In this document: one piece after another, positions 6,670 through 56,529 of the stretch
How positions within the stretch are numbered: the stretch's first letter is position 1
Layout of the letters: each line of letters begins with the position of its first letter
Virus record (IMG/VR): IMGVR_UViG_3300021400_001319
Coordinates: 13,098 to 77,097 of that record
DNA length: 64,000 bases
Strand: one strand, 5' to 3'
From: a virus
Lineage: Duplodnaviria; Caudoviricetes
Notes under the pieces: model-generated
Seen by the model: the letters and a program-made list of their open reading frames with translations, nothing else
What the model was told of the DNA's origin: nothing
Databases searched by the model: none
Made by a program: the position numbers and the translations under genes

Positions 6670-7253
6670 AGAGAATAATATCAATCACATGTGCCTACTT
6701 ATTATTGGCTTTTGAAATCTGTGCTGCGTGTGAAGAACCTATCGAAGAAGCCGTTGGGGAAGAGGTACAGATAAAGGCAGGGTTTACTCAGTTTATATCA
6801 GATATAGTCCCCACACAGGATAATACAGAGGATTCTAAAAGAACAGCGTCTAAACTAGAAATAATTAACAATATGTATTGTGAAAACAAAGATGTTTCTG
6901 TACCGATACAATCCGACATTGATCTATTGGCATCAATTATACGTGCTGAAGCAGGCAACCAATCATTAGCAGGGAAGAGAGCTGTAGCAGATGTTGTGTT
7001 AAACCGAGTTGATAGCGACCAATTCCCGGACACTATCAAGGAAGTTATTTACCAAGAAGGACAGTTTAATTGCGTAACCGATGGCAATTTTGCCACAGCC
7101 ATTTATACCAAAGATGAAACTGATTATGAGGCTGCAAGGATAGAATTATCAAACAGAACAGATACAGAGATATTGTATTTCCAAACAAACAGCTATAGCG
7201 CTTATGGGACACCAGCGTATGTAATTGGAGATCACTATTTTGCAAAGCAGTAA
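6666..7253 (+). CDS. SleB-like cell wall hydrolase (Hydrolase_2) with N-terminal signal/anchor
   Basis: LLASIIRAEAG...AVADVVLNRVDS..FPDTIKEVIYQEGQF...IGDHYF. Confidence 0.88.
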   Translation: MKRIISITCAYLLLAFEICAACEEPIEEAVGEEVQIKAGFTQFISDIVPTQDNTEDSKRTASKLEIINNMYCENKDVSVPIQSDIDLLASIIRAEAGNQSLAGKRAVADVVLNRVDSDQFPDTIKEVIYQEGQFNCVTDGNFATAIYTKDETDYEAARIELSNRTDTEILYFQTNSYSAYGTPAYVIGDHYFAKQ

Positions 7254-7263
7254 AGGAGTTTTT

Positions 7264-7494
7264 ATGGCAGTAACAAGGATGAAAAGAATCAAAGCAATAA
7301 TTGATAGCGGTATTTACACAAAAGATCATGGACATATCGCAATCACCAAAAAAGAGGCTGAAGAGATAAAAGCCTTATGTGAAAAAGAAATCAGCGTTCA
7401 GGACAGACGTGAGTATCACAAGTCTTATTATCTCAAAAATCCAGACAAATACAATCAGAAGGGGAAGAATAATGCAGAAGATAGCAAAATTTAA
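7264..7494 (+). CDS. hypothetical protein
   Basis: SD aaggag before the ATG at 7264; operon context. Confidence 0.55.
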   Translation: MAVTRMKRIKAIIDSGIYTKDHGHIAITKKEAEEIKALCEKEISVQDRREYHKSYYLKNPDKYNQKGKNNAEDSKI

Positions 7495-7978
7495 GAAGGT
7501 ATCTTTTGAACAGTTTTCAAAAGATTCAAAAAAATTACTTTTTGATTATTCAGAAGAGAAGCTGGCTCATATATATGCCGGGATAAAGCTGCCGTTAAGA
7601 GCTACAAGTGGGTCAGCAGGGTATGATTTTTACACACCTTACGAAGTAAATCTCCATCCTCATGATAAAGTTATTATCCCATCTGGCATACGCTGTGAAA
7701 TTGAAGAAGGTTACATGATGCTTGGAGTAGTAAGAAGTTCAATGGGCATTAAGAACGACATCAATCTGAGTAATACATGCATGGTACTGGATAGCGATTA
7801 TTACTTTGCAGACAATGAGGGACACATAATGATTGCATTAAGGAATATGAGAAACTACTCAGTACACTTCTCAGCTGGCGAGAGAATCATGCAGGGAGTA
7901 TTTCTTCCTTATTGCATCACAATAGACGACAAAGCAGAGAATAAACGAACAGGCGGTATTGGCAGCACTAATGTCTGA
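7472..7978 (+). CDS. dut: trimeric dUTPase
   Basis: Motifs SAGYDF, RSSMG, LDSDY, GHIMI, ERIMQG, RTGGIGST; start MQKIAK at 7472. Confidence 0.93.
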   Translation: MQKIAKFKKVSFEQFSKDSKKLLFDYSEEKLAHIYAGIKLPLRATSGSAGYDFYTPYEVNLHPHDKVIIPSGIRCEIEEGYMMLGVVRSSMGIKNDINLSNTCMVLDSDYYFADNEGHIMIALRNMRNYSVHFSAGERIMQGVFLPYCITIDDKAENKRTGGIGSTNV

Positions 7979-8627: not shown

Positions 8628-9938
8628 ATGGAAAAAGAAAAACTATCAAAGCTGTTTGCTTTCTATCTTAATAATGGTATCATTGACCTGGACAGCCTTG
8701 CGGAGAATAGCAAGGAGGAATCAATGAACAATATTTTGGGCAAGGTGCACAAGTATAAGATATATGTGCATTCAGATGGAAGGTATGTAACATACGTTCC
8801 AGATCCAACCAAAAAAGATGGAAGGAGACAGATAAGAAAAAAAACAATAGATGAACTCAATGAATTCTTGCTTGAGTTCTATACAACAGAGGTAAAAGCT
8901 AAAGAAAAAACATTCGATGAACTTTACAAAGAATGGGTTGATTACAAGAAAAGCTTCTGTGCAGTTAAAAATGTGCATAAAGGAATATCACCGTCAACTA
9001 TTAGACGATATCAAAGAGACTTTGATAATTATCTAAAGGATAGCAAATTATCCGGAATGCCAATATCTGCAGTTACTGCTGTTAAGCTTGAAACAATATT
9101 AGGAGATATTGTGGAGAGTAACAACATGATTGAAAGTTGTGCAAGTAATGTAGTTGGATACATTAGGCAAACTTTTGCTTATGCAAGAAGATCAGGACTT
9201 CTAAAGGAAAATCCATGTGAGTACATGGATAGAAAACTGGTGCTATCGAAATGTTCTCTTAAGCCGAAGAAGGATGATAGTGATAGAGTTCTTACTATAG
9301 CAGAAATGAATTCTCTAAGGCAATCTGTACGAGAACATGAGAAGAAATATCCTGACTACATGCCTAACTATGCTATAGAACTTGCTATGATGACCGGAAT
9401 GAGAGTAGGAGAAATAGCTGCTCTAAGATGGATGTCTATTGATGATGGGTATATTCACATTGATGAGTCGGAACATAGGTTAGATTACGAAGACAAACCA
9501 AGTGAACTTATCATTGGAGAACCAAAGAACCAAAAACACAGAATGGTTCCATTGACTGACGATATGAGAAATCTATTTCTTAGAATCAGAAGTCTTGGAC
9601 ATGAACATCCTGAAGGTTTTGTTTTTGTCAGAGAAACAGGTGAACGCTGTACTGGCCATGATATTGGCTGTGCTATAGACAGAAGAGCTTCAGAGGCAAT
9701 GATCAAAAAGACATCTATACATGGGATAAGAAGAACAGTCTCATCCATTCTCAGAACAAAACTTCCGGCTAGGACTGTAGCCAACATGTTAGGTCATCTT
9801 GAATCAACCAATGAACGACATTATAATTATGACTTCTATGAGGACGGAGCAAAGATCGAGGCATTATCATCGATTTCTCAAATGTCCTCAAATGTCCTCA
9901 ATTTTTCTCAAAACAAAAAAATAGCGGAAGCCAGATAA
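8628..9938 (+). CDS. int: tyrosine integrase
   Basis: Catalytic residues in MRVGEI (R), EPKN (K), HGIRR (HxxR), LGH and HYNY (Y); adjacent to attP. Confidence 0.93.
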   Translation: MEKEKLSKLFAFYLNNGIIDLDSLAENSKEESMNNILGKVHKYKIYVHSDGRYVTYVPDPTKKDGRRQIRKKTIDELNEFLLEFYTTEVKAKEKTFDELYKEWVDYKKSFCAVKNVHKGISPSTIRRYQRDFDNYLKDSKLSGMPISAVTAVKLETILGDIVESNNMIESCASNVVGYIRQTFAYARRSGLLKENPCEYMDRKLVLSKCSLKPKKDDSDRVLTIAEMNSLRQSVREHEKKYPDYMPNYAIELAMMTGMRVGEIAALRWMSIDDGYIHIDESEHRLDYEDKPSELIIGEPKNQKHRMVPLTDDMRNLFLRIRSLGHEHPEGFVFVRETGERCTGHDIGCAIDRRASEAMIKKTSIHGIRRTVSSILRTKLPARTVANMLGHLESTNERHYNYDFYEDGAKIEALSSISQMSSNVLNFSQNKKIAEAR

Positions 9939-12403: not shown

Positions 12404-13270
12404 TTATCTTATTTCTGGCGCGCTGGTTCTCTCTGTAGGCTGGTGCGCTTTTTGTTTTATCATATCAATTATTTCTTCTGTTGTTACTGATTCTTTATCC
12501 GCAAGATGCTCGGCTAGATCCTCGTCATTCCAAATGATGCCTTTCGCCCTGTCTTCTTCACGCATTTCTCTAAGATATCTATAAAATGTTGACTTGGTAA
12601 TCTGGGCAATAGTATAGCATTGCGTGGCAGTTAGTTCCCCACCAAATAATTGAAAGTGTTTTCGTATTATTCTCTTTGCTCTTTTTGATTTCTTGGTGAT
12701 TAGCTTTTGTCCAGGTTGCCTTCCCACCTTAGAACCCATCAGTTTGGCTTTCTTCAACCCTTCAGAAGTACGTTGTGATAATAATTCTCGCTCTTTCTGT
12801 GCATGCTCAAAGGCTAAATATATCTGTCTCTCAGCTACAGATAGGAGATAGTCATTAAGGCCGCCTATCACAGTATCAATAAGTTTTGCTGTTTCCTCGT
12901 CCATACCTTCTGTAGCAATCTCAATCTTTCGCTCAGAAGCATCACGATATATCTTACTGTTAATATGAGGTTCTTTGAGAAATTCCAATTCAATACCTAG
13001 ATTATAGAGCTCTTTGTATTCCACTATAGCCTCTTCAGCATTTCTTGAAAATCTTGATACTTCGTCAAAAACCAACTTCTCAACAGCACCGAGCCTGCAT
13101 TGTCTCATGAGCTTCTTCCACCTTGGTCTATTATCAGTGCTGCCGGTATATACCTCACTGATAACTACAATGTCTGGGTATGCCTCTTTCAAATTGTCAA
13201 TCTGCCTGCGTAATTTTTGCTTTGGCGTAGATACTCTTGCATACCCCACTATCATTTTCTTTTGATCCAT
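12404..13270 (-). CDS. serine recombinase (resolvase/invertase family) with C-terminal HTH
   Basis: GYARVSTPKQ (catalytic Ser), YTGSTDNRP, VSRFSRN, GSKVGRQ, ITKSTFYRY. Confidence 0.93.
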   Translation of the reverse strand: MDQKKMIVGYARVSTPKQKLRRQIDNLKEAYPDIVVISEVYTGSTDNRPRWKKLMRQCRLGAVEKLVFDEVSRFSRNAEEAIVEYKELYNLGIELEFLKEPHINSKIYRDASERKIEIATEGMDEETAKLIDTVIGGLNDYLLSVAERQIYLAFEHAQKERELLSQRTSEGLKKAKLMGSKVGRQPGQKLITKKSKRAKRIIRKHFQLFGGELTATQCYTIAQITKSTFYRYLREMREEDRAKGIIWNDEDLAEHLADKESVTTEEIIDMIKQKAHQPTERTSAPEIR

Positions 13271-33578: not shown

Positions 33579-35805
33579 TTATTGTTTCATGGCACGTTGA
33601 TAAGCGTTACTTATCATGCCAGCGAATTGGTCTTGAATCATATGCATTACAGATTCTCCCGTCACGCCAGAAACAGTGAATGAAGTACCATTTATATTAA
33701 TAACAGTACTTGTATTATTTGTAGTTACATTACTTATGTTCTGTGCTATGGCCTTAATCGGTTCAAGCATTTGAGATGTATCTGCCTTTATTCCAGCCAA
33801 TGCATTGCCCATAGTCTTAAACATATTTATTTCAGCATCTGACAATGGCATTAAACCACTGCCATTAGCATAAGAGTTACCACCATGTTTACCATGTTTG
33901 ATGATGGATTTAGTTTGTTCAGCATTGAAGATAAGATCGCCTTTATGCAGACGAGTAATTTCTGGGCCATGGTCACCAACGGTACGGTATGTTCCTATCT
34001 CGGGATTATAGACAAGCTCTTGTCCAAGTTCTCCCACAAGAGCATTCTCGGATTTCTTAAGTCCTAGCTTTCCGCTTGCATAGGCATTGCCATGGACATT
34101 TCCAGTTGCCAATCCATTTACATGTACATTGCCGGTGTATTTGTGACCAAGAATTTCAGCGCCACCTGATTCATCAAACTCAGCAATCTTTGAAAGAAGT
34201 TCTACCATTTGAGCTACGCAGGCAGAAATTGCCTCAAGCAATTCATTGAACATGGGAATGATGCCATTTTCACCACGCATTGCTTCTTCGCCTACAATAG
34301 GCAAACTCTTTATAGCACTAACAAGGGTAGAACTTTCGGTGCCGCCTTCTTCTTCAGAATTTCCGATTGTCTCTATTACAGTCATAATTGAACTTGTTAA
34401 TGCGTCAAAATCGGAAATAGCAGTGCCGCCACCTTCTCCTTCTTCGCCACCACCAGCTTCACTACCAGTTCCACCACTAGAGCTTGTTCCAATATACTCA
34501 TCAGCTGCAGTTTTTACTTCTTCTATGGCGCTAATAAGACCACCTGTACCACCTGCACCCTCTGAGGTTTCAGAAGAAGTTCCTTCGGTATCCGTCATTC
34601 CACTAGCACCAATGGCAGAAGATACGGCAGTAACTGCATTTGCTAGTGCATTAAATGAACCAATTGCTCCGGTTGTTTCATCACCTAAGGATACTTGACT
34701 TAAAGCGGTAATGGCACTTTCCAAAGCACTGATTTCTCCGTCTCCAATACCAAGAGCTTCAGCACATGACTTCAATGCTTCTGCTAGATTATTGAATGCG
34801 TCAACAGTAGAAGTGAGATCAGCGTTGGTCATGCTTTGCATTGACTTATCTATACTGTCAAGTGCATCAGCATTCTCACTAACTTTAGCAAGGCTGTCAT
34901 TAAGGGTGTCTGCATTGGTTGCCGCGAAGAAGCTGTTTTCTGCAACTGCATCTAAGTTCTCGGCAGCCGTTCCTGCGTTTTCTCCTTCAGTCTTTAAAGC
35001 TTCAGCAGCAGGTACAATGCTCTCAGCAACCTTATCACCGCTTTCAGCTACCTTTTCATTAGCCTCTGCAAACTTTTCCTTTGAACTATAATACTGTTCA
35101 GCAGCTTTACCCTCAGCTTCAATTCCCTTTGCAGCTTTATCTGTTGCCTCTGCAGCATCATTTGCAGAAGTAGTAACATTACCAAGATTAGAGGCTGCAT
35201 TGCCACTATTAGTTGCAACATTACCAAGAGCAGTAGCAGTATCCTCAACTTTAGAAGAAACCTCACCAAGAGGCTCTAGTGCTTTATCTACTTCTGAAGC
35301 TTTTCCGGCAATTTCACCAAGTGCTGAATTCACGCTATCTTTTGCAGAACTTGTAGCATAAGATAAACCATCAAGGAAGTTTTGATTTCCGCTATTAGCT
35401 TCTTGTAGAATGTTAAGGTAGGCATCCCTAAATGCTTCAAACGCACCGGGAACATCGTTCAAGATATCCTCTACAGAATAGCCAAGGTCTTCGCCTGCCT
35501 CCTGGATAAGAGCATATGCATTAGCAATCTCTTTAATCTCAGCAAGCTCTTCCCATTTAGATTTCTGTTTTTCAAGAGCATCAATAATGGAATCCCAATA
35601 CTTCTCGGTATCAGAGATTAATTGGTCATAATACTTTTCAGCAGCTTCACGAGCTTTTTCAATCTCTTCTCGTTGGTCTTGTAATGTTTCGAGCTGATCT
35701 TCAAGTAGACTCTTTTGTTTTTCTAGAGCAGCAACAGCAATTTCATATTCGGCATCGTCAACTTGCTCTTTGGCTTCACGGACAGCATCTGTATCCGTAT
35801 CATAT
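33579..35805 (-). CDS. tape measure protein, exon 2
   Basis: Open from 35805: (a) TAT GAT ACG = YDTDTDAVREAKEQV..., continuing in frame into the 33579-35462 ORF; C-terminal YASGKLG...ALVGELGQEL. Confidence 0.88.
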
Positions 35806-35978
35806 CATTCTGTTACTTTTATGACCTACATAAGTAGGCGAGTAGTCATTTCTGGCTACTTCTCGCATTTCTTTTATATGGGATTATATTGCGAGTTCGG
35901 ACTGTATATTCACACTTTCGCGTGCGCACTTCAGCATACATGTTACCATGTACGCCCTGCAGTCTCTGCGGTTCCTAA

Positions 35979-36007
35979 TTGTGATTATACTTTGACTCTG
36001 ATATAAT
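35979..36007 (+). promoter_or_regulatory. sigma-A promoter for the intron-borne toxin ORF
   Basis: TTGTGA-N17-TATAAT with extended TG. Confidence 0.7.
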
Positions 36008-36136
36008 TAGACCTTAGACAACATTCGTAACATTTTATTTCGGCTAGAATAAGATGGTTAGGCGGTTGAGTCACTTCAGAACAGCGATGTTCTGTTCAGA
36101 TAGATACCCTTGCTAAGAAAGAAGGTGATATCACAA

Positions 36137-36259
36137 GTGACGTTCCATGTGTTTTTGTTATCTATAGTTGCGAGTTTAATCGCAGCTTTGATATATGACA
36201 TCATCAAAAAGATTGTCAATAAACACAAAAACGACCGCCACCGCCGTGGAAGTCGTTGA
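36137..36259 (+). CDS. putative type I toxin (40 aa, single TM and basic tail) inside the intron
   Basis: GTG start with SD gaaggtg; MTFHVFLLSIVASLIAALIYDIIKKIVNKHKNDRHRRGSR*. Confidence 0.75.
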   Translation: MTFHVFLLSIVASLIAALIYDIIKKIVNKHKNDRHRRGSR

Positions 36260-36330
36260 TGTGTTAGCATTTATCTAGCCATTCTCGCTTTTATGGCTCA
36301 ACCGTCTAATACGAATGTTGTCTTTTTTGT
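36225..36330 (-). ncRNA. putative antitoxin RNA (~100 nt) convergent with the toxin mRNA
   Basis: Promoter TTGACA(36365-60)-N17-TAAGAT(36342-37); terminator AACGAC...GTCGTT-TTTGTGTTT overlapping the toxin 3' coding end. Ends are approximate. Confidence 0.6.
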
Positions 36331-36457
36331 ATTTATATCTTAAATACAATGCTCAGTCTTGTCAATATAATCACTTTTAATTTCTGTTAGTTACCTCAGT
36401 CTCTGGTGTCCCATCACCCTTTGACTGATATAGTGTCGTTTATAGATGGCAAATTCT

Positions 36458-39400
36458 ACCATCTGTCCGTCTTTATAAATCAGACGAGTTCTTTGTTGCT
36501 GAGCTCTTTGAAGTTCATATTGTGCTTTTTGAAGATCGATGTTTCTTTGACGCTCTTCACGTTCTTCTTGAAGTTTGTCGATTTCATCTTGTACCGCATC
36601 GATTTCGTCTTGCTTTGCATCTATAAGCGCATCGATAGCGTCTAATTGTGCATCATACGCTGCAAGAGCTGCATCTTTTTCATCGTTCAAAGCTTGAACA
36701 GCAGCATCCTTACCTTCTTGGGCAGCACTAATCCGCTTATCAAGAAGAGTACCAACAGCTGAGAAAACAGACTCATAGTAGGAGATGACTCTATTAAAGT
36801 AGTCAGCCATACGTTCGGCATACTCTTCACCATATCCGTCTACATCTTTAAAGTATTTTTCTATGAGAGCGCGATAACGATCCAAGAATTCTTTTTCGCT
36901 CAAAATCCCAGCATCACGTTGCTTTTCAAGTGCCTCTAATTCCTTTTCAAAAGCCTCGACATATGCATTGCCGGCATCACCACCAGATTTACTTGCTTCT
37001 TTTGCAGTAGGGTGTAAGTGTAAACCACTACGATACTTTTCGTCATTATGCCATTTCTGCTGTTGAGATTGCCAATCATCAGGCATGCCATAAGTTGAAG
37101 TGATGGTTTTTGTTTCTTTGTTTATTGCATAGCCACTTCCCTGATAAGTCAAATCAAGAAGTTCTTTCAGTAGTTCAATGTCAATGCCAAGCTTCTCTGC
37201 AAGAAGATCCAGCCATGACGTATCACCACCAAGAACAATATTTCCAGCTTGCGCCGCCTGCCTCAGATAATCCATCAGCATTTCATCAGCAAGGCCTAAT
37301 GCTTTACCTTCTTCGTAAATACGAGCTGCAGCATCAACAGCGCCATCAGCCATCTTGCCTTGTTCATCTTGAGCATCTTGCAAGGTGGAAACAAACGACT
37401 GCATTTTATCTTCAGCGGCTACAGAATCAACAAATGTATCCACACCCTCAGATTCAAAGCCATCCATCTTCATCTGAGACTTAACCATATCCATAGTCTC
37501 TTTGGTAGCACCTTGAATCTTTATCATGTTACGGGCATAGCTTGTAGCTATCTTATCGAAAGCATTTTGAACATCCGCGACAGATGCATTGTCGGTAGTG
37601 ACTTTGATTTCAAACTCTTCGAACTCTTCTTTGCCGACTACACTTTCCCATTTCTCACGAAGAGCTTCTACGTCAGAGATATCCAATGGAACTTTGACTG
37701 TATCACCTTCAACATTTTCTCTAAAGGAATTGTACAAAGACTGTAGAGACTCTAAATCATCATCAATTTCATTGAACTTTACAGCGCTGAACACTTCTTC
37801 TGTAGCTTTGGCAGCTTTCTCTGTTTCTTCACGATATAACCGCATGGTTTTAACAGCATCGCCACCTGCATCTACATAAGCCTTTAGCCACCTATTATAC
37901 TCCTCAGCAGTATCGATCTGTTCTTCATCAAAGAAGGTATAGACACCATAAGAATCAACCATATGTCCATCTACTGTGGTTAATTCCTTTTTGGTTTGCT
38001 CGACGCGATTTAGAAGTTCCTTGTCTTCATCAACAATATATTCGACGCCTATTCTTAAGCTTTCAGGAAGGTTCGCCTGTAACGAATTCCATAGCTCAAT
38101 TCTTTGTGTTGGTGTTAGATTTGGGTCGAAGATGTCATTAAACTTTAATCTATCTTCAGGAGACAACTCTTTTGCCTGCGCAACCCAAGTAGCAATCTCT
38201 GCTTGTAAACTTTTGCCATCAAGTTCTTTAGCAAATTCTTCGGGCAATGAGTTCGCATAATTCCTAAGCATTTCTGCCAGCTGATCATCATCAGAGGCTA
38301 GGAAATTGATACCACCTATGATATTAGGCAATATTCCCAACCATGCCGATTGAAGTTTTGCCTGTCCCTGCTTTAGTCCACGTTGCGCCTGCGTAACTCC
38401 CTTATTATAACCATTTACCACAGAATCAAAATATTCATCAAAATATTTCTCTATCGTCTGGCGCTCATCAGGAGAAAACTGACCGAAGTTAACGGCTATT
38501 GAGTACTGATTATCAGTAGAATTATCTACAAGGGAATCTCTTAGCCTGCTAGCTAAATCTTCGTTTTCCTTGGCTACCGCATCTATCATTTCTCCATACT
38601 TGCTTTCAAATGTATGGATAAAATCTATAGAATGAGAATCGAATTGCCCAGCTGTTAATACAAGCTGTTCATCTGTTCTAGCGGATATATTTCTCAGCTC
38701 CTCAAGTAGTGCATTGTAAGATTCAATATCCCTTTGGGCCTCTTCTATATCATTTGTGGCATCTTCTACTAGAACCTTGGTATTCTTTTCAGCTTCAGGG
38801 AGATCTTTATACAACTCATAATTATAATTATCTCGTTGCTGTTCAATCAGCCCTTGTAGCTTTTTCCTCGCCTGCTCGGCATTGTCTCCAAGGTCGAGGA
38901 TATAATTACCATATTCATCAACTCCATGAATTAACTGAGGGAACATTTCAGCAAGTTCTTGGTTAGTAGAAACAAACTCCTTATAATCATCATCTGACAA
39001 ACTGATATTCTTACCTGATATAGCATCAACACCTTTGGCCATTTCAAAATATGAATCAGAAAGCTCATTCACTTTCTTCTCATGACTTTTTATATCAGAA
39101 CTCATGTTGTCATATTTTGTTTGTAAATCATCCATGGCCTCGGTAGCTTCTTCCACTGAGATAGTGAATGCATCGTAGGCTGCCACGACACCTGCAATAG
39201 CACCTGCCGCCAATATACACCATCCAACTGGATTGGTTACAAGCCATGTTGCAAGCGCTTTTATATTTCCCCATAGAGCAGTAGTGAATGCCTCAACAGA
39301 AATTGTGGCAGTTCCATTAGCAGCGGTAAGTCCTGCTTTTGCCAAGATATCAGCCTTAGTAGCCTCATTAACCCCTGCCAAAGTTAGAATTTGAGCAGCT

Positions 39401-42400
39401 TGTGCGTAATTAAGGCCTTCTGTTGCAGTAGCAAGGGCACCAACGGCAGATGCAGCTTGGCTAGCTCCTCCAATAGAAGACAAGGTATTGAGTATTTCCT
39501 GAGTGGCTTTAAACGATGCCGACAGCTTTCCAAAATTCTTAACAAGAACAACTATACCGGCAATTGTGGCAGAGGATCCAAGAAGGCCAACATGTTCTAC
39601 TATATCATCAAGCACACCAATAATTGATGTGCCTAAGTCAACAGTATCTTTTGCTAACTGAGAATCCAAAAAATCTGTTTCTAGTTCTTGAAGAGTCGCT
39701 ATGAAACGATCAAGAGAGTATTGTATACTCTTTGCGTAATTTTCTTGCTCTTTTGCGGCACTTCCTGCAGATTCCTCTGCAGCCTTATATGCACCTTCCA
39801 GAGTATCAAGATTGCCAAGGACAGCATAAAGAGCGTTTGCATTTCGCTTGCCTGCAAGTGCTTCTCCAAGCGATGCACGTTCTATATCGGTGAGATTGTC
39901 CCATTCTTTTCCAATACCAAGAATGATTTCATAGATATCTTTAAAGTTATCCTTATCATCCATGATATCGAATCCGGTAAGGCTTTTTACCAAATCTCTA
40001 AGCTTGGACGTAGTAGTAGTAAATGCGTCCTCCTCCTCACCGAGCTCTTCAAGTTCTGTTTTAGCACCTCGAATCCTGGCACTCAATGTTTTCCAAAGAG
40101 TACCTACAGCCTCGGGATTTTGGACAACCTCATTTGTAGCTGTAACTAGTGCAATTGACTTTGAAAGATCAGTATTAGCAGAATTAAAGGAAGCGGCAGA
40201 TCTCTGTAAAGCTTCGCCTATTCCACGGGTGTCGATTGCGAAGTTGTTTGCTACCTCATTATACTTGTCAATTACGCTTTCAGCTTGATCGCTCGCCAAC
40301 TGAAAACCTTGAAGAGTAGATATAAGATAGCTACTGGCATCGTCAGCTGACATGTTATCACCAACAGTTGTAAACAAAGTAGTAACTCTAGCCAACTTTT
40401 CAGCAGCATCAACATCATAACCAAGTCTAGCCCAATCTGCGGTAACATTAATTACATGGCTTATACTTGAGCCAAGTTCCTTTGCTGTCGCAGCAGATGT
40501 TTCAAAGTTCTGTGCTAATCTTTCAGTTGAAGCGTCAGACACCTTACGTAATTCTGTAAGAGCGGAATCAACTTCTGTTACAGTAGTTACTATAGCCCGT
40601 AAATAACGGAACATATCTTGCAAACTGAAATAAGTAGCGAAAAATTGAGCATTTGCTGATTTCAACTGCTTAACAAAAGAATTAAAGAAACTACTTCCTG
40701 TTTGATGAAGTCTCCTTACGTCCGCTTCAATCTCCGCAACATTTCCCTTGAATTTTTCAAAATCAACCTGAGATAGTTCTTCGCCACTATTGATTATCTT
40801 ACGAAGTTCAACATGTATTGCATTGAGAACTTCTTTGGATTTTTTCCCCGCAGCGGTGTTATTATCTAAAAATAATTGTATTTCATTATCTAAAGACTTG
40901 ATATCATTTATATCTGCAGGGATAACATCGCCTTTTACTGAGCGATTATTGATATCATTTAATTGCGATTCAAAATCACTTAGCGTAGTAAGAAAATCTA
41001 CGACTTGTTGCCTAACTACGTCAATATTTGAATTCTTAAAATCTATCTTAGCTCCAGATAACACAACGAGGGCTTTGCGTAAATCTTCGACCTCTGTTGC
41101 AAAACCAGACATAAATGTTTTAGAAGACAGACTTTCTGTTGAATCAATAAAACTTTTTAATCGTTTCTGAGCAGCAGCAATAACAGCTTCCCAATCTTTT
41201 TCCTGGTTCCTTAAACGCTCTGCATCGAAAGCATCAGCATGATAGTCTTCTGGTAGGAATTCATCAGAGCCAACCCAGCCATTGTTCCTAATTTCCAAAA
41301 GAATCCTATTATATTCCTCAAGAGCATCAATTCTGTTTTGCCAAGCGGACAAGTCAGCACCAGTTTTAGCATTAAGGAGCATGTCCTTCGTTAATTGAGT
41401 AATGGCTTTATCATTATTATGAATCTGTTTTTCTAGTGCTTCGTAATTTTCTTTTGTACTTTCAAAAGAGTAATAATTACCATCCTTATCGTAACCGCTC
41501 GTGGTTGTTCGGGTTCTAAAACGATCAATAAAACGCGTATTGGCATCATAATAATCGGTAGCAGTAACAGAGCCGTTAGCATTGTGAATCTCGTTTTTGT
41601 ATACCTTATCTTCAGCCGCTGCTAACTTTTCTAAAGCTTTTCTGCGCTCATCTTCGGCCTGCGATGCTCTTCGAGTTATACTTACTCCATCTTCTTCAGC
41701 CTTTGATTCTTCTTTAGTTGCCTCGGTACTTTTCTTAGTGGCATCCGTTTTATTTTTCTTTGCATCTGTCTCTGCATCAATTTGTAAAGATGTCTGTTTA
41801 ATAGCTGAATCAGCTTGCTTCTTAGACTCAACATCACTATTGGCCTTTTTGCTCTTTGTGTTTTCATCAATTTTTCGAGTCTGCTTTTCGTACTCGGCAG
41901 TTAAGTCGGCCACCACAGTTTTTGATTTCGATAGATCCTCAATAGGCCTCGTGCCGCCAGCTTGTTCGTATTTCCTGTATTGGTCAGTAATAGTCCTAAT
42001 AACCCCTGGATAATGTTCGGCGTTTGCCCTAGGTTTAGCATATTTGGATGCTAAGGTCTTTATCTCATCAAACTTTTTATCAAGCGATACTTCTGCATTT
42101 TCTTTAGCAGCTTGCGTATTTTTCTTAATCTCTGCAGTATTCTTTGCAACCTCAGATGTATGCTGTGCCGCCTGTTTTGCTTTCTTTTGAGCTACCTTAT
42201 CCGTATCAGCTTTCTTGTTTTCTGAAGCTTGTTCTTTAATCGTAGCAGCAGTTTTCTCTATTGCCTTTTGCTTTTTTTTCTCATTGGCAACTGTTTTTTC
42301 AGATTCTGTTTGAGAAGTCGCTGATAATATAAGCAGGCGGTCTTCTAAATCGTTATACAGCACGCCAAACTTTGTGCCAAAAGATTTGAAGTTATCAAAG

Positions 42401-45400
42401 AACATTCCCCAAGATTGCTGAGCCGCTGCAGGAGAATCATTAATCTCTTGCCATATTTCATTATTAGCCGCAAGTACTTCTTTCTGAATCTTTTTTAAAT
42501 CAGAGGCATCAGTGCTATTGCTTAATGCATCTTTTGCTTTTACAAACAGATCTGAATAACTACCAAGCCTTCCAGTAATAGCCTCTTGAACCGCATCTGT
42601 TTGTTGTTTTTGTGCAGACGTCTGTTCTTTAATCTTAGCTGTTAATTTCTCTGTGCTCTTTGCAGCCTCTTTCTGAGAAACAGAAACATCTGATATTGTT
42701 TTACTGGCCTTTTGAGATTTTGAAACAAGGTCATCCAACGATGCTGAGGCCTCTTGAGTCATCTTAACAGAGGCTTTTTCTTCAGACGGATTCAGAATAT
42801 TATTTATATTAGACAGCAGCTCTTTTTTTATAGCCGAACCATTAAGCTTTTTGAATTTGCTAAACTTAGTTTTACTAGCCAAATTCTGGATATACTTAAG
42901 AATTTCTTGATCCCCAGTATCCCGATATTTATCTAAAGCATTTGCAATCAGGGAAACATTCTTGTCGTGCTTACCAAGAGAGTATAGATTTTTTAGAGAA
43001 GAGTCACTAAGAAGAGAGGTTCCCTTATTGTTAATTATCTTAGGTACACCATTGAAAAGTGTAATTCCTGCGCGTCTAAGATTAACAATAGCCTCATTCA
43101 TAGTCTTGATAGCGTCTTTTAGTGCGAGTTCACTTTCATTTAACTCTGCAGATTTACTCTTAGGAGAGTAGTAGTACTCATCCATCCCCATTTTCTTATG
43201 GACGCTTCCAGTCACTCCTTCGGCCTTAGACAAATCCAACATGGATTCCTTGGCAAGTTGAAGCGCTACTAATAGTTTAGTGACTTCTTCATTTGTTGCT
43301 TTTATTTCTTGTTGGGCTTCACTGCCCATAGCCTCAGAAGCTTGTTCAACCTCTTTAAAGCCTTTTGCAGCAGTATCGGTAGGCAACTTACTTAACAGAT
43401 TAGTAAGACTTGTGCGCATAGTATCGGCATTGCCTATTATTCTGTCATAGTAGGCTTGATACTTCGCTAAAGTTTCTTTTGTACCACCATTCTTTTTATA
43501 GATGTCAAAGAGCTGTATAAACTTTAAATAATGTTTGTAAGCATTTTCCCAATTGGTGTCTTCAAACTTATTATTATTAATCCATTCAGCTTCTGTTTGT
43601 AGACTTCTACGAGCATTATCTCTTACAGTATGACCTTTCTTAGTAGTTCCTTTTACAGTTATGCCATCTAAGACTTCTCTTATAGAAGAGACATTATAAG
43701 CCCCCGACTTAGATGTAAGACGACCAATTGCAGCAGTCATTGCATCTAGCTTTTGTGTCACCTTTTCAACTTTGGTTGAGGTTTGTTCTAGTTCTTCTTG
43801 AGTCTCATCCATGGTGGACTGAAGTGTTTTCTCTTCATTGCTTGCCTGTTTTAACGTAGTGGCATGCTGCAATAAAGTCTTTGCTATACCTTCTTTACTA
43901 TCGCCTGCCTTGCGACCTGCTTGATAAATAGAGTAAGCGTCAAACCCCAATAGTTCATTAAGCTTTTTTGAACTGACACGTGTACCAGAGAGAAGAGCTG
44001 TTAGACGTTCCTCTATATTATCTATTGAAGATTCTACTGTCCCGGCAACATCTTTAACTGCGCTCTTGATTTCATCAATTGCCGGAGTGACATTAGATAT
44101 CAAAGAATTATCAGCCGTATTAGCCATGCCCTCAGACAATCCCTGAAGTGCTTCTTTAGCAGCCTTTTTTGACGTTTCTTTGATTTCTGAGGTCTTTTCT
44201 TTTATTCCCTCTACATAGCCTGAACCAAAGTCATTTCCTAATTTTCTGGTTTTCTTTGCCGCAGAGTGTGAATCCTGTGTGGCTTGCACAGCGGCAAGAG
44301 CTGCCTCAACCATTTTTGTGGCAGCTGCTTCTACATTAGGAATTTGATCTTGAATACCTTTTACATATCCTTGTCCAAAATCTACACCTGCCTCGTACCA
44401 ATCTTTAGCAGCATTGATTTCCTTGACATTTCGGCTGAGCCACCCCTGAACATTTTCTGTTCCGCCAAGATCTTTAAAGCTTTTTGAACCACCTAGTTTC
44501 TGATACTGCTCGAACTGGGCCAACACGCTTTTGATTTCTTTCAGGTTATTCCCACGAAGCGCACCTGATATACTCTGAACCCGCTGTTGGATTCCAGCAA
44601 ACATATTATCAAGATCATTGCTATTAAGAACCTTGTAGGCTGTTTGAATAGATGCAAGAAAATCAGATAAAGTATTTACCAAAGTTTTTACTTCTGAAAT
44701 GTTCTCTTGTAGACTAAGTGTTTTTAAAATTTCCCTAATGTCTACAAGTACCTGCCATACATAAGTCGTCTGGAGCTTTGTTTCCTCAGCTTTAGACATG
44801 ATCATGTCAATGACACTTACTATGGTTTTTACCTCATCGAAGCCCTTTTGATTCTTACCAAACAAGTTAATAGTCTTAACATCTAGAACCAGTTCTTTTG
44901 AAAGACGATTTAGCTCCCGCTGAAGTTTCTTTGTGACTTTTTCATCCATAACAACTGACGGATGAATTTCCATAGGTTTCTCAACCGTTGTACGTATTTT
45001 CTTTATAGTGTTGTTAATATTGGTTTCGGTTTCAGACAAGGCATTTGCTTTGATCTTTATATTGAGTTCCTTATCGCCACTGAAATCTTTTGCGATATTA
45101 TCAAATAGCTCCTGCAAGCCACTTTTATTTACCTGTTCTGGCAGAGAGTCTATTTCACTCTGTATCTGGGAAAGGAGCTTATTGGTTTTCTTTGATGAAT
45201 AACCTGACTGAAGAACAAACTGCAACTTCAGAGGATAGTCATTAAGATGAGGCTGGGTTTTATCAACTATTTCTTTGGCTCGCTGAACAAGCGTGTTTAC
45301 ACCAGTAGAAATATCAAGAGGAACAGTTAACCTTTTTGTTTCACTGGTTCCATTGGCCTTCTTTTCTATCTCAGCAGATATAGTATCTGTTATTCCAACA

Positions 45401-46269
45401 CTTTCTCTTTTTATTTCATTTAGTCTGTCCTGAATACGGTCAGAGAGTTTATCTAACGTTTCCTCTATTCTACCGGTGACTTCCTGAAGTTTCATTCCAG
45501 AAAAGTCTAATTCAAAGACATCATCGTACTTCTCCCTGTTTGCGCTGTCTTGTAATTCTCTAATTTTCTTAGCAGTCTTTACTAATTCAAGCGCAAATTT
45601 ATTGTATTCCTTCACAGGAAGATCAGGTGACTTTAAGACTTCTTCAAGTCTTAAATATTCGTTTATCAGATCGTCAAAAGATTGAGCAAGCTTTTTTGTA
45701 GAACCCTCATAGTTGTCATTCTCAAAGTTAAACTGGTTGATGTCTTCAATGACTTTAGCTATTTCAGTCAACTTCTTAGCTTCTTTTTCTAAAGAAGATG
45801 CATCTATCCCAGTATGCGTTCTTACGTTTGGTGTCTTATTGAATGTAGAATACAAATGATCTATTGCACCGACAGCTTCTTTTGCATTTTGCGTAGTCGT
45901 AGCCATTGAACGCGAGAATGAATCCAAGTCTTTTTTAAAAGCATCCCCTACGTGTTTTGACATAGTGCCAACTAAAGCGGCCATTTCTTGTTCTAGCGCA
46001 GTTGTTCTTTGATCAATACTATCAATCTGCTTAATCAATCCTTTTGACAAGTCTTCAAATGTTTTACGATTAAGCTTGTTTGTGTTGATTGAATTAAATT
46101 GTGCTTGTAGTTCTTTTATTGCTTGTTGAATAGAAGCGACCTGGTCAGCCATTCCCTTTGTCATTTTATTGCCAGCTCTATTGGACAAGCTGTCTAACTG
46201 TCGCTCTAAATCTTTTATTTGATCACTGATGTCTATCCTTATACCGACATCAACAATAGGCTTTGACAT
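36458..46269 (-). CDS. tape measure protein, exon 1 (spliced product 4012 aa)
   Basis: Long helical/coiled-coil protein with a TP901-type TMP domain (VDSALTELRKVSD...WARLGY...ALQRSAA...GTLWKTLSARIRG); exon ends ...KDGQM-GT. Confidence 0.92.
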
Positions 46270-48344: not shown

Positions 48345-50255
48345 TTATATCTCAGCTACTTCAATAAGCTTCACATGTTTTTCTTTTTGCGTTGCTAGGA
48401 TTTCCCTTACTCTGTTTTCAGGCAATACTGTAATGCCTCTTCTTAGCAATTTACCTGTATATCTATCTTTAAACTCTTGGACAACATTAACTGTTAAACA
48501 TGGTGTTTCCTTTACCTCTTGCCTTATAGGCGCTGGAGCACCAAGAAGCTTTTTCCATTGGTTGACTATGGCTTTGTTGTCGTATCTAAAAGTGAATTTT
48601 GGAATAGTCAATATCTTTCTTACATCAAATTTCATGTCGTATGGTATTACATACCCGTGGACACCATCTTGAAATCCCTCTTCAAACAATGATGGAAAAG
48701 GAGTAGCAAGGACAGGAGTGTTAAGATTAAGAGCTTCTAATACAGACATTGAATATGCTTCGGCATCTGATAGCTGAACAAGATAATCCGCTTTTTGAAT
48801 AAAGCTCTGTATGTTAGCTCTTGGCCCCATATTTATAAAATTTTCCGGGGGATTAGGTAATGCTTTATCTGAGAAGTTAAGCCACACAAAAGGAATATTT
48901 TTTTCATTAAGCATCTTAGCCAAAGTTCTTATCCTTTGGTCGTTTTTACCTTTATCACTTACACCCATTCGTGTTGCTGATACCAACAATAACTCTTTGG
49001 CTTCAGGATAAGACATGTTATGAATAACAATACCATTCTTAGCCTTTTCTCCCCATGAAGACTTAGAAGCCTGAGATACATTCACCAAAAAGTCAACGTT
49101 ATCAGGGTTGAGATCAATTACTTTCTGCTTACATGCATGGCAAACTTGAACGGACTTTTTATACATAACATTTTTAGGGATACTATCTGTGAGTCTATTT
49201 AAAATAATAGTGTCACATGAGATAGGCTGGTTTGGGTCATTCTTCATAACACGAACTATTTTTCTTAGTCGATTACACTGCATAGGATCAAATCTGTCAT
49301 ACAATACCAATATGTCATAATAATCCTTTAAGTGCTGGCACGTGTTATAAAGAAATGTCGATATACCACCTATCATATTTGCAAATTCACAATAAAATAT
49401 TACTTGTGCTTTAATCGGGATTGCCATTCGTATAAATCTATTGTAAGGTTCTCCCCTTAAATAATGCCCCCAAATACTTATTGGTTTAGATATTTGGCAG
49501 TATCTACGCAATTCGGGAAGATCATTCTGCTCAGTAAGCAACCATACCTCATTGGTTTCATCCTCTTTACGTATCTCATCAATGAGCCACCGCATATTTT
49601 CTGTGACGTGTTTATAATAGTAAACGACTCGCTTGGTTTTCATTAAGCCTTTCTTAAAGCGCTTTATCTTTGAATTTGTCACAGCGGTACGATAATAATA
49701 CATGTAGTCTGATATAATCGCCCTCGTGAACTTATTTGTTGGATCAAGATAACCTATTCGCCTTGAAAAGTCTTCATCCTCAGTTGAATCTTTTTTTTCA
49801 TTAAAGCGCGTATTACCAATAAAGGAACGCTTAAATGCCCTTGTACATACTGATGGGTTGGTCAGTCTGTCAGTTGGCTTATTTAATTTCTTATTGTGTT
49901 GAGTCCCTTCGGTAGAAGAAAGTGATTTCCATGAAAATTCAATGACATCGGGGTTAGTTCTGGCAGCCTCTAAAAGCTTTCTAACAAAATAGTTGGGGAC
50001 TAAATCATCAGCATCTATAAATGAGATGTATTCACCAACTGCATTATCAAGGCCAACATTTCTAGCTGTAGAACACCCACCATTTTCCTTGCGGAATACT
50101 TTGCACCACTTATATTTAGTTTTAAATGGTTTTTCACTTCCGTCATCAACAAGTATACACTCGATATTATCCGTCATCTGCGGAGATAAAACATCCAGGA
50201 GTTCATCAGTATATTCTTTTGCATTATAATAAGGGATTATTATTGACAGTTTCAT
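48345..50255 (-). CDS. two-domain glycosyltransferase (N-terminal GT2/GT-A, C-terminal GT-B/GT4-like)
   Basis: LSIIIPYYN...ILVDDGS...NGGCSTARNVGL...FIDADD; C-terminal LVQLSDAEAYSMSVLEALNLNTPVL. Confidence 0.88.
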   Translation of the reverse strand: MKLSIIIPYYNAKEYTDELLDVLSPQMTDNIECILVDDGSEKPFKTKYKWCKVFRKENGGCSTARNVGLDNAVGEYISFIDADDLVPNYFVRKLLEAARTNPDVIEFSWKSLSSTEGTQHNKKLNKPTDRLTNPSVCTRAFKRSFIGNTRFNEKKDSTEDEDFSRRIGYLDPTNKFTRAIISDYMYYYRTAVTNSKIKRFKKGLMKTKRVVYYYKHVTENMRWLIDEIRKEDETNEVWLLTEQNDLPELRRYCQISKPISIWGHYLRGEPYNRFIRMAIPIKAQVIFYCEFANMIGGISTFLYNTCQHLKDYYDILVLYDRFDPMQCNRLRKIVRVMKNDPNQPISCDTIILNRLTDSIPKNVMYKKSVQVCHACKQKVIDLNPDNVDFLVNVSQASKSSWGEKAKNGIVIHNMSYPEAKELLLVSATRMGVSDKGKNDQRIRTLAKMLNEKNIPFVWLNFSDKALPNPPENFINMGPRANIQSFIQKADYLVQLSDAEAYSMSVLEALNLNTPVLATPFPSLFEEGFQDGVHGYVIPYDMKFDVRKILTIPKFTFRYDNKAIVNQWKKLLGAPAPIRQEVKETPCLTVNVVQEFKDRYTGKLLRRGITVLPENRVREILATQKEKHVKLIEVAEI

Positions 50256-50402
50256 GTGTTTTTCCTTTTGCTCTTATGCTACAATCTTATTGGTGCTACC
50301 TAAACGGTGGCGGTTGGTCCTCTAGGAACTATTAACCTTGATTATCCCTGCGGTAGGGAGGAATCGCTATGGGGAAAATAAATCTGAAGGGACTGATGCG
50401 CA

Positions 50403-50489
50403 ATGACTATTTTAGAATTTGCTGCTTTGATCACGCTTCTTTTCGGAGCGTTCGGCATCGGATATAAACTAGGTAAGAACGCAAAATAA
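50403..50489 (+). CDS. putative type I toxin (28 aa)
   Basis: MTILEFAALITLLFGAFGIGYKLGKNAK*; mRNA 5'/3' pairing GGTGCTACC/GGTAGCACC and CGGTTGGTCCTC/GAGGACTAACCG; extended -10 TGcTACAAT at 50277-50285. Confidence 0.7.
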   Translation: MTILEFAALITLLFGAFGIGYKLGKNAK

Positions 50490-50575
50490 CCGCCTACCCT
50501 CAGAAAGTTAGCGGTCATTTTACGTTAATAAAAGCTGAGGACTAACCGTTGCTGTACGGGTAGCACCTTTTTGTA
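50483..50575 (-). ncRNA. putative antitoxin RNA (~90 nt)
   Basis: TTGACT(50610-05)-N17-TAGTAT(50587-82); terminator AAAATGACCGC...GCGGTTATTTT at the toxin stop. Ends are approximate. Confidence 0.55.
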
Positions 50576-50621
50576 TTTATTATACTATATGTTTCACACG
50601 ACATAGTCAATACATAAGGTG

Positions 50622-54742: not shown

Positions 54743-55985
54743 CATGAAGTTACTTTAACGGTTCGTTAGACCGCCAAAGAATTATTTATGTTGTAATAAG
54801 AAACATAACGATCATACTTACGTTGTAAATATATAGTTGCATCTTGGTAAATCCAATCAAGAAATGTCTTTGATATATTCCTGCCACCCAAAGTAAAAAC
54901 TTTTGTAATGCCATTATGACATGACGCATCGTATACATGACAATTGATACCAAGCTCAGATTCAACAACTTCTTTCATACCACAACAAAAATTTTCTGTT
55001 GCAGTGATAGTTAATGCTACAGCATGGTTGGTTGGACTTTTGCATTGCATATATACACTGCCATCACCATCATACACGCCTCGAATGAAGTGGGGGATAA
55101 GTGAACGCTCAAGGAAAGTAGGGAAAGTCGTTTTCAAACTTTTGTTTTTTACAACTCCTAATTCAGTAAGAACGTCACATATATGTTTACTAAACACAAG
55201 TAACCTATACTGATTTTTATACTTATAGCCAAAATCAGTTTTCTTTGAGTAATCCAGATATTCTAATGGCTTACTACTATCCATAAGAAGTCGTACTTGT
55301 TCAAGCAAATCCCTATCTTCCTCTTGAAGAGATATGGAAACCGTTGACTTATTAGGATTGTTGCTTCCGTCTGAATATAACAAACCTAATATATAAGCTT
55401 TTTCCTGAGTATCAACTACATCAAAGTAATTCTCGTTGACCTTATATTTCCTTACCATTTTAGCCTGGCTAACTTCTATATTGTTCCTATGAAGAACTTT
55501 CAATATAGGTTTATGAGTTGTGCCATAGCGTTTACCTATAGACACAGAAGATTCGCCGTTTTGGTACGAAACGATAATGTCAGTTTCTTGTTCCTGATTA
55601 AATACAATCTCATTATATGTATGATTACCATTCTTATGCATTGTTTATCTCCTCTAAAAATAAGCAATATAAAAAGACAGTAATCTTCGTGTTAGAGGCA
55701 CGAAGAAAGGGGAGCTACCCCTTGTCCTGTCTTTTTAACAACACAAATAATTTTTCTCTACCTCTCGGTAGAAGTTCAGGTCATATCAACACCATATCAT
55801 TTCTGACTTAGGTGGTTCCCATTACCTCACTTGAGGACTTGACCGTCGAACCTTCCCTTTCGGGCTTGGCTGCTGATTGTCTCTATCTATTAGATTTTTA
55901 CACTTTGGTACTAATAGCCTAACGAGAGTTTCCAGCAATTAGAGAACTTTCGACATATGGTTTCCCATATGAAGCGCACAAATTT
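54743..55985 (-). mobile_element. group I intron (1243 nt, IA2-like) with LAGLIDADG homing endonuclease
   Basis: 5' exon ends in U; IGS TTTGTGCG pairs with cgU (P1) and with 3' exon ACAA (P10); CTAATTGCTGGAAA and AATCAGCAGCCAAG (P4-P6); P7 GGTCA/TGACC; ends ...GTAACTTCATG. Confidence 0.92.
54766..55641 (-). CDS. intron-encoded LAGLIDADG homing endonuclease
   Basis: Two motifs, AYILGLLYSDGS and HFIRGVYDGDGS; N-terminal HTH; located in the P9 region. Confidence 0.9.
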   Translation of the reverse strand: MHKNGNHTYNEIVFNQEQETDIIVSYQNGESSVSIGKRYGTTHKPILKVLHRNNIEVSQAKMVRKYKVNENYFDVVDTQEKAYILGLLYSDGSNNPNKSTVSISLQEEDRDLLEQVRLLMDSSKPLEYLDYSKKTDFGYKYKNQYRLLVFSKHICDVLTELGVVKNKSLKTTFPTFLERSLIPHFIRGVYDGDGSVYMQCKSPTNHAVALTITATENFCCGMKEVVESELGINCHVYDASCHNGITKVFTLGGRNISKTFLDWIYQDATIYLQRKYDRYVSYYNINNSLAV

Positions 55986-56529
55986 ACGAATTCTGGCTCC
56001 TAAGGACTCCAGCCATCTGCATCTTTTTACCATCCATTATCCATTGAAAGACATAATCACACCTAAGAAGTTCAAAGTCAGAAAATTGAACATCATTATA
56101 ATCAGCCTGACTAACTACAAGCCAACGGTTATAATGGCCTTTGTTGTCTGGGATATCCAGATACATTCCTATTGGAAAGGTTGCTCCATACCTTTCTTTG
56201 AATTTCTCTTTGTAATAAGGGATTACATCTTCGGATTGTGATGGCCGAAGTTGCAAATGATAGCTTATGAAATCTTTCGAAAGAGTCTGTTTAGTATGTG
56301 CAATAAACTTAATGCTAATTGGAATTTTCTTTTCGTCTTGTTCTGGGTGCAAGTCATTCAACTGAGTGATATGATCATCATGATCAAAGTCATAGAAATA
56401 AGCAATTCGGGTATCAATATCATTGTCCCATGTTGCCTCCATAATCATGTCAGAGTCAGCCTTGTGATTCTGCCCCACGGTAAGACCACCGTTCATTTTT
56501 TTAAATGTTTCAAAGGAAGGCATGTTCAC
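55986..56529 (-). CDS. neck/head-closure protein, exon 1 (spliced product 391 aa)
   Basis: The apparent stop TAA at 55984-86 straddles the splice site. Confidence 0.85.

Follow-up and report, generated by a model that had tools for sequence, protein, structure and literature searches.

We analysed a window of 64,000 nucleotides (positions 13,098 to 77,097 of the IMG/VR viral record IMGVR_UViG_3300021400_001319, a 77-kb contig that is, by estimate, about 50% complete), in which a phage tape-measure gene is interrupted. Our preferred reading, which we hold to be probable, is that the interruption is a splicing-competent, IA-like group I intron whose P6 extension holds a complete type I toxin-antitoxin module, and that this module belongs to a family of cassettes present in gut phages. 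Group I introns are thought to persist by means of homing endonucleases, or as harmless relics after endonuclease loss, and type I toxin-antitoxin modules are seen as elements that stabilise prophages and plasmids on their own. Nesting one in the other would make a ribozyme loop a refuge in which an essential virion gene can harbour an addiction or defence module. Each of the two components is already known on its own, group I introns from prophage tape-measure genes (PMC2504315) and type I systems from clostridial prophages. A preliminary description of this DNA, drawn from the sequence alone, had suspected that the combination was undescribed, and this appears to be so, as we found no paper on a toxin-antitoxin module inside a group I intron.

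The tape-measure gene presents itself as two reading frames on the minus strand, separated by a gap of ~590 nt with stops in every frame. The upstream frame is an apparent open reading frame (ORF) of 3292 aa (46269..36391) that matches PF10145 (PhageMin_Tail) with an E-value of 7e-22, and it extends 64 nt into the intron before a stop codon ends it. Because the 5′ half of the intron lies within this apparent ORF, upstream of that stop, the intron starts at 36457. Its splice sites, between 36458 and 36457 and between 35806 and 35805, were derived from homologous introns; the 5′ site, after U36458, is set by the P1 helix together with homology to the relatives. P1 consists of seven pairs, including the U36458·G36450 pair at the splice site, and is found at the same place in relatives as GGGU/GCCC or AGGGU/GCCCU. 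At the other end, the terminal G35806 closes the conserved motif AACAGNNUG. Joining the exons restores the codon GTA from GT and A and keeps the frame, so that the protein reads ...YKDGQMV followed across the junction by YDTDTDAVREAK; the expected ligated RNA is ...CAGATGGT joined to ATATGATACG. The homologous 3′ site, directly after AACAGNUUG, also keeps the frame in relatives, namely in phage TR-TP1 and in the group of contig L005. The predicted spliced protein (33579-46269) has ~4010 aa, which is exceptionally long and would imply a very long tail if the length scaling of known siphoviruses applies. A 5′ splice site at the stop codon (36393), as in a gutted intron, was considered and rejected: P3-P6 would have no space there, and the 5′ half turned out to lie upstream of it.

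The helices P1 and P3-P9.2 are complementary in five lineages, as established by alignment and a complementarity check, and most of them differ in sequence between lineages with compensatory changes. A 10-bp, GNAA-capped hairpin, P7.1, stands between P7 and P3′, which fits subgroup IA. The segments AGAGACUGCA and AAUAUACAGUCC resemble the consensus R and S strands. The minimum-energy fold of the 652-nt RNA (z = -6.8) recovers the helices except P1 and the P7 pseudoknot. An alternative P3, UAUAUC/GAUAUA, was rejected; it fails in the window, and a P3 based on ACU/AGU covaries instead. By this architecture, the interruption is a group I (IA-like) intron that should be competent for splicing, and in this the preliminary description is upheld by the homologous splice sites and by the complementarity of the helices in all five lineages.

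Relatives of the intron reveal what its P6 loop normally contains. The 3′ 165 nt share 72% identity with the tape-measure intron of the Thomasclavelia phages TR-TP1 and TR-TP2 (PQ571309 and PQ571310), and a query with the conserved core pattern AGAGACTGCAGG..TACAGTCCGAAC retrieved 20 more viral contigs, all with the match in tape-measure-like genes. The 5′ half is common to the relatives (P1 guide, P3, P4, P5, P4′ and P6). Their P6 loop holds an ORF of 340-484 aa, the remnant of an ORF (L016 and L019) or a plain hairpin (L010 and L022). In the window, the distal P6 loop, where relatives carry an endonuclease ORF, its remnant or nothing, is occupied by the cassette. The outer stem by which the preliminary description had attached the cassette to the P6 extension reappears in the minimum-energy fold of the whole intron as a 14-bp stem that seals the cassette onto P6. 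The description had also seen no homing endonuclease, and indeed the sole other ORF in the window intron is a 64-aa antisense ORF without a family match; Pfam returned nothing meaningful for this ORF or for the 40-aa peptide of the cassette. The search for intron alleles that the description had proposed succeeded in part: alleles with an endonuclease, a remnant or nothing were found, and further cassette-bearing introns were not. A combined intron and cassette pattern had 0 matches in metagenome contigs, and a window-specific P3-P5 pattern had 0 viral matches and 6 metagenome matches, all in an unrelated protein-coding gene. One 645-nt contig (run X2) joins position 35565 to 36506 through 294 other letters, where 288 would be expected of an intron-less, diverged allele; its anchors, 28-41 nt long and mismatched, are too short to establish such an allele.

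The TR-TP1 record (PQ571309, positions 1642-3172) annotates three genes, a 'tape measure protein', an 'HNH endonuclease' and a 'hypothetical protein', and no intron. These correspond to the two exons of a single gene and, between them, the NUMOD4-containing ORF of its group I intron. Accessory genes in introns would be missed where a split gene is annotated as separate ORFs, as in this record.

The promoters, Shine-Dalgarno (SD) sequence, ORF, pairings and terminator listed in the preliminary description are all present where it had placed them (Table 1). In relatives, the toxin promoter is found at the same position as TTGACA-N17-TATAAT, and the antitoxin promoter of the phage MT835469 cassette (L003) is found at the same position as TTTACA-N17-TAAGAT. 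A 318-nt toxin RNA folds at -111 kcal/mol (z = -8.3 against shuffled sequences), and both proposed pairings between the mRNA ends are recovered in this fold; the antitoxin RNA has a z of -4.2. The encoded 40-aa peptide has a best 19-residue Kyte-Doolittle window of 2.52 (residues 5-23) and a tail with a net charge of +7. The locus therefore presents two of the features that define type I systems: a small (<60 aa), hydrophobic transmembrane (TM) peptide with a charged C-terminus as the predicted toxin and, at the sequence level, an antisense RNA encoded in cis, which has a promoter and a terminator to itself and overlaps the toxin mRNA. As the preliminary description had pointed out, the sequence of the intron RNA is antisense to the toxin mRNA over its whole length, and it also contains the antitoxin sequence. 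The position of the antitoxin terminator likewise agrees with that description, as it faces in the sense direction within the intron and stands in the path of tape-measure transcription.

Table 1 Positions in the window of the tape-measure exons, the intron and the elements of the cassette; transcript ends and functions are predicted.
Feature	Position	Strand	Details
Tape-measure exon 1	36458..46269	-	ends ...CAG ATG GT
Tape-measure exon 2	33579..35805	-	starts A TAT GAT ACG...; frame open from 35804 down to 33579
Predicted group I (IA-like) intron	35806..36457	-	652 nt, runs from 36457 to 35806; P1 U·G pair, terminal G35806, P3-P9.2
P1	36444..36464	-	exon end AGAUGGU (36464-36458) with internal guide GCCAUCU (36450-36444)
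5′ core	36393..36435	-	P3 CACU 36435-32; P4 CAGUC 36427-23; P5 GGUG/CACC 36418-15 and 36408-05; P4′ GACUG 36401-397; P6 GGU 36395-93
P6 closing stem, 5′ arm	36352..36365	-	GUGAUUAUAUUGAC; contains the -35 hexamer of the antitoxin promoter
P6 closing stem, 3′ arm	35981..35996	-	GUCAA-AG-UAUAAUCAC; pairs with 36352-36365
3′ core	35806..35972	-	P6′ ACC 35972-70; P7 GACUG 35964-60; P3′ AGUG 35930-27; P8 35926-11; J8/7 AAUAUA; P7′ CAGUC 35904-00; P9, P9.1, P9.2; terminal G 35806
Whole cassette	35979-36365		
Toxin promoter	35979-36007	+	TTGTGA-N17-(TG)TATAAT, TG extension; scan score 10/12
Predicted toxin mRNA	36014..36330	+	~315 nt; ends placed by means of the promoter and T run
Closing helix 1	36016-29 with 36310-23	+	5′-3′ pairing of the mRNA, from folding
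Closing helix 2	36058-73 with 36294-309	+	5′-3′ pairing of the mRNA, from folding
Conserved 5′-UTR hairpin	36076..36096	+	UCAGAACAGCGAUGUUCUGUU; invariant in the cassette family
Shine-Dalgarno	36122..36128	+	AAGGUGA; paired with an upstream UACC/CCUU segment
Toxin ORF	36137..36259	+	GTG start 36137, 40 codons, stop 36257-36259; one hydrophobic helix, basic tail
Antitoxin promoter	36365-36337	-	TTGACA-N17-TAAGAT; scan score 10/12
Predicted antitoxin RNA	36221..36331	-	~105-110 nt; complementary over its full length to the toxin mRNA 3′ end
Antitoxin terminator	36256-36221	-	hairpin 36256-36231 and U run 36230-36221; overlies the 3′ end of the ORF

The cassette recurs outside introns. A 54-nt match to the unannotated faecal phage MT835469, the only GenBank phage record with the cassette, led to a whole copy there, in an intergenic spacer between two terminators. 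When the invariant hairpin of the 5′ untranslated region (UTR) was used as a search motif on viral contigs, 36 more viral loci (L024-L059) were found, which with MT835469 and the window make 38 loci and 19 distinct versions; the motif is also present in two genome assemblies, of Kineothrix and Eubacterium. All versions have in common the position of the toxin promoter, the closing helices, the 5′-UTR hairpin, a GTG-ACG start and the -10 element of the antitoxin promoter. The arms of the closing helix vary yet stay complementary, as AGACAACAUUCGUA/UACGAAUGUUGUCU in the window, AGACAGAUUCC/GGAAUCUGUCU in MT835469 and ACAAGCAAAUAAUCC/GGAUAUUUGCUUGU in the main group, and the anti-SD/SD stem covaries from U-A to C-G (alignment columns 118-124 with 155-161). 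The RNAalifold consensus of the family comprises 68 pairs, of which 19 show compensatory changes, including pairs of the closing helices and the anti-SD stem. Because the architecture recurs in 19 versions with compensatory pairing changes, the cassette is more than a chance assembly of motifs.

The peptides of the family have 33-42 aa, a hydrophobic helix and a basic tail, and the window peptide is the most divergent among them (26-39% identity to the others). Purifying selection is indicated by a dN/dS within the family of 0.09-0.49, calculated over the first 29 codons. In most versions, the antitoxin terminator stem encodes the tail motif HK(N/D)(D/N)R(H/L); the stem is kept in relatives, with changes, and the HKNDRH tail is kept. 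Conservation is higher in the untranslated regions than in the coding part, which fits an RNA-controlled module. This family, from gut and rumen phages of Clostridia, is apparently undescribed, and it is widespread and has a clear RNA architecture.

The cassette occupies intergenic spacers at the other loci, and at most of these the flanking ORFs run antisense to the toxin. In L031, the only locus checked in this respect, the cassette (6308-6671) lies directly downstream of a tyrosine integrase gene (356 aa, 6751-7818), and an ORF of similar size adjoins the cassette in most of the others. The antisense placement in the window is not an adaptation specific to the intron: since most family loci have the toxin antisense to its neighbours outside any intron, the orientation is the usual state of the family. 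The simplest reason for it is that read-through from a neighbour then yields antisense RNA and not a translatable toxin message.

The window itself has a second cassette of the same design at 50273-50613. On the plus strand it encodes a 28-aa hydrophobic peptide (MTILEFAALITLLFGAFGIGYKLGKNAK); its closing arms GGTGCTACC/GGTAGCACC are followed by a T run, and a minus-strand terminator lies over AAAATAACCGCC...GCGGTCATTTT. This copy is situated between minus-strand structural genes, so that its toxin is again antisense to the late operon. Directly adjoining it, within the structural operon, is a fusion of GT2 and GT1 glycosyltransferases (48348-50255, minus strand).

An assembly chimera was considered as the origin of the arrangement and rejected. 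An 829-nt goat-gut contig from another study, in a run filed 11 years after the likely source run, covers exon 2, the 3′ part of the intron and the cassette up to 36179, with three differences and one 1-nt insertion. Because this independent contig spans the region from exon 2 to the cassette, the arrangement is not an assembly artefact. The runs that hold the stretch are all recorded as animal-gut, and where a host is named it is goat, bovine or sheep.

We infer toxicity, antisense control, splicing and the biological role of cassette and intron from the sequence and from the published systems that it resembles. In the scheme that we propose, the plus-strand promoter would produce an mRNA of ~315 nt for a 40-aa membrane peptide. 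Two long-range helices would pair the ends of this mRNA and a local stem would bury its ribosome-binding site, so the full-length mRNA would be poorly translated. The convergent minus-strand RNA of ~105 nt, an exact complement of the last 12 codons and of the 3′ UTR, would pair with the toxin mRNA and bring about its decay, as in the type I systems of Clostridioides difficile and Bacillus subtilis prophages. If the DNA were lost, the toxin mRNA, as the more stable of the two RNAs, would persist without its antitoxin, which would favour retention of the prophage and of the intron with it; alternatively, the module may serve in defence.

The P6 loop, the place that a homing endonuclease takes in relatives, tolerates insertion. 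The antisense strand mirrors the end-to-end pairing of the cassette, which explains how the insert can fold within the loop into a closed domain at the side of the ribozyme. In the lytic phase, the pre-mRNA of the tape-measure gene and, after excision, the intron would carry the antisense of the whole toxin mRNA and should add to repression, and the orientation would keep late transcription from making a translatable toxin message. Late transcription would have to pass the terminator inside the intron, by antitermination or leakiness.

Several findings weigh against the reading of the locus as a splicing intron with a type I module. The Rfam group I model RF00028 does not match the intron even at E-values up to 10. 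Because it also misses the ORF-poor and ORF-less relatives L019, L016 and L010, its silence is uninformative for this intron family, which is beyond what the model can detect; of the Rfam and folding check put forward in the preliminary description, the folding part thus came out in favour of the intron and the Rfam part did not. The window peptide matches the profile of C. difficile type I toxins, NF047374 (CD_typeI_toxin), at 34.9 bits and an E-value of 1.4e-8 (residues 6-35 on profile positions 4-33; 32.4 bits in a six-frame search), short of the curated cutoff of 60 bits. The profile comparison suggested earlier therefore found a type I toxin model and stopped below the score for membership. 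The other peptides of the cassette family do not match NF047374, and neither a word-based search nor a full phmmer search of 1.84 billion representatives found a relative of the peptide, which at 40 aa is uninformative. A good intrinsic terminator is costly in an intron that interrupts an essential gene, and the intron-borne cassette was found in one phage lineage only.

The RNA record belongs here too. Two metatranscriptomes from two studies yielded one contig each (36048-36275 and 36109-36267, both at 100% identity), which cover the toxin ORF and part of the 5′ UTR and nothing from the flanks. With a word depth of ~3 and no strand, they could have their source in carried-over DNA or in another phage with an identical cassette, and they hint weakly at a stable RNA that spans the toxin gene. 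The two libraries hold no RNA contig for the exons, the intron flanks or the junction, which is not evidence of silence.

Set against these points, the claim of a convergent, type I-like cassette is borne out by the family of 19 versions, by their covarying pairings and by the resemblance to NF047374, below its cutoff as that is. We assign the cassette to type I because its layout matches the published C. difficile prophage systems, and we withhold membership of the protein family because the score is below the cutoff. The window peptide is a relative or look-alike of NF047374 and not a member, and the cassette would be a type I system of the general C. difficile prophage kind without belonging to that protein family.

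Among other explanations, it is conceivable, though we think it unlikely, that the cassette is a real antisense-regulated gene for a small membrane protein and not a toxin-antitoxin system: a lysis-timing, holin-like or superinfection-exclusion factor, the production of which would be timed by the late transcript together with the convergent RNA. In size and shape the peptide resembles a holin, one family peptide has a weak match (E = 0.018) to the holin/toxin-secretion family TIGR01593, the C. difficile toxin model fails to match most of the family, and the window copy and the second copy both lie inside the late structural operon. A late factor would, however, be expected in the sense direction of the late operon, whereas the toxin is antisense to it here and to its neighbours in most family loci. 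Moreover, the relative checked has its cassette next to an integrase gene, and the locus displays the full set of type I features, with an end-closed mRNA, a buried ribosome site and a 3′-overlapping antisense RNA that has its own promoter and terminator.

We regard it as very unlikely that the intron no longer splices, in which case the gene would make two polypeptides (3292 aa and, from TTG 35462, ~627 aa) or the phage would be defective, and the cassette would lie in a dead spacer. The silence of RF00028, the lack of an RNA contig bridging the junction and the terminator inside the intron would all suit such a state, and the contig, ~50% complete, may not represent a viable phage. On the other hand, RF00028 is equally silent on ORF-less relatives, none of the core helices is broken and they show compensatory changes against four other lineages, the 7-bp P1 with its U·G pair is perfect, the terminal G stands in the AACAGNNUG context, the junction is exactly in frame, and no sequence like a start signal was apparent where exon 2 begins. 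Highly improbable, in our judgement, is a decaying hitchhiker, a cassette that arrived by illegitimate recombination when the endonuclease was lost and that is under no selection here. It would account for the intron-borne arrangement in a single lineage, the divergence of the window peptide and a -35 hexamer, TTGTGA, weaker than the TTGACA of the family. Decay is nevertheless difficult to see in a copy in which both promoters, the SD sequence, the GTG start, the ORF and the terminator are intact, and in which both closing helices are preserved with arms changed in a compensatory way relative to relatives. The goat-gut contig, 11 years later, also differs by only the three changes and the single insertion over 829 nt, and the contigs from RNA libraries are identical to the ORF region.

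Returning to the intron with a type I module in its P6 loop, a bolder form of this reading, which we put forward as doubtful, is that intron and cassette have fused into one regulatory unit, an 'addictive intron' in which killing replaces homing. The lytic pre-mRNA and the excised intron would then act as a long antitoxin that switches the toxin off. In the lysogen, the stable toxin mRNA, being antisense to the P6 domain, might pair with stray late transcripts, and cleavage of the double-stranded RNA would block tape-measure expression. The module would kill recombinants that lose the intron precisely or gain an intron-less allele, so that post-segregational killing would stand in place of homing, and the terminator in the intron would be a checkpoint passed only by antiterminated late transcription.

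The phage of the window encodes a tyrosine integrase (8628-9935, plus strand; PF00589, E = 4e-17) and a serine recombinase (12407-13270, minus strand; PF00239, E = 1e-21) and is therefore probably temperate. It is an animal-gut phage, with a clostridial bacterium as its probable host. Megablast and tblastn searches of GenBank phages gave no match, whether the query was the region, an exon end or the peptide, a search for loci related to exon 1 found no relative, and a distant blastn of GenBank phages matched TR-TP1, TR-TP2 and one unannotated record only. The window also has a second, short group I intron at 55756-55995 (minus strand), which RF00028 matches at 53.5 bits and which carries no cargo. 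It lies between the ORFs 55984-56529 and 54766-55641, probably parts of one split gene.

We compared the cassette with known type I systems. In C. difficile, the loci CD2517.1-RCd8, CD0956.2-RCd10 and CD0977.1-RCd11 are borne on prophages or adjacent to CRISPR arrays; their toxins have 34-59 aa, with an N-terminal hydrophobic helix and a basic C-terminus, and the major antitoxin RNA species measured have 125-150 nt (PMC5961336, PMC7699646; reviewed in PMC6563280). The window cassette resembles them in its convergent toxin and antisense genes with overlapping 3′ ends, in being carried on a Clostridia prophage, in the roughly similar length of its antisense RNA, and in a toxin that falls in the 34-59 aa range and has a basic tail. 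It differs in that its tail is rich in Arg, His and Lys whereas that of the C. difficile toxins is lysine-rich, and in its location inside a ribozyme loop.

The bsrG/SR4 system of the B. subtilis prophage SPbeta (RF01412) is likewise prophage-borne and convergent with 3′ overlap. Its model scores 11.2 bits on the window (E = 9.3), below the gathering threshold of 55, and the peptides are unrelated. Under the gathering and E-value thresholds, Rfam gave only noise on the cassette, both in the window region and in relatives, and the RNA architecture of the cassette, with two closing helices, an invariant 5′ hairpin and an anti-SD stem, is in no Rfam family. In hok/Sok of plasmid R1 and aapA1/IsoA1 of Helicobacter pylori, the full-length toxin mRNA is likewise inert, since its 5′ and 3′ ends are paired and its ribosome-binding site is occluded. 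There, however, the antisense RNA hits the 5′ region of the mRNA, whereas that of the window covers the 3′ end, and there is no sequence relation.

Among introns, those described as TMP-IVS1, 2, 3a and 3b in tape-measure genes of Bacillus cereus group prophages (Tourasse and Kolsto 2008, PMC2504315) are, like that of the window, of subgroup IA and inserted in frame in the tape-measure genes of Firmicute prophages. They have an endonuclease gene in a loop, often deleted without loss of the fold. Likened here by description only, they carry an H-N-H or GIY-YIG gene, a remnant or nothing, and antisense cargo with its own promoters is not reported for them. The intron of TR-TP1 and TR-TP2 is homologous to that of the window, with the same helices and an insert in the same P6 loop, at a similar insertion site (...YEEG before the junction and VGW after it in TR-TP1, ...YKDGQMV and YDT in the window). 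Unlike the window, the TR-TP1 loop holds a 415-aa ORF with a NUMOD4 motif, annotated as an HNH endonuclease. IStrons (bioRxiv 10.1101/2023.11.20.567912) differ from the window in carrying an IS605-type transposase or TnpB with a guide RNA, at the 3′ end of the intron and in sense orientation. Like the window element, they are group I ribozymes with cargo other than a classical homing endonuclease, and in them cargo and ribozyme come into conflict at the RNA level.

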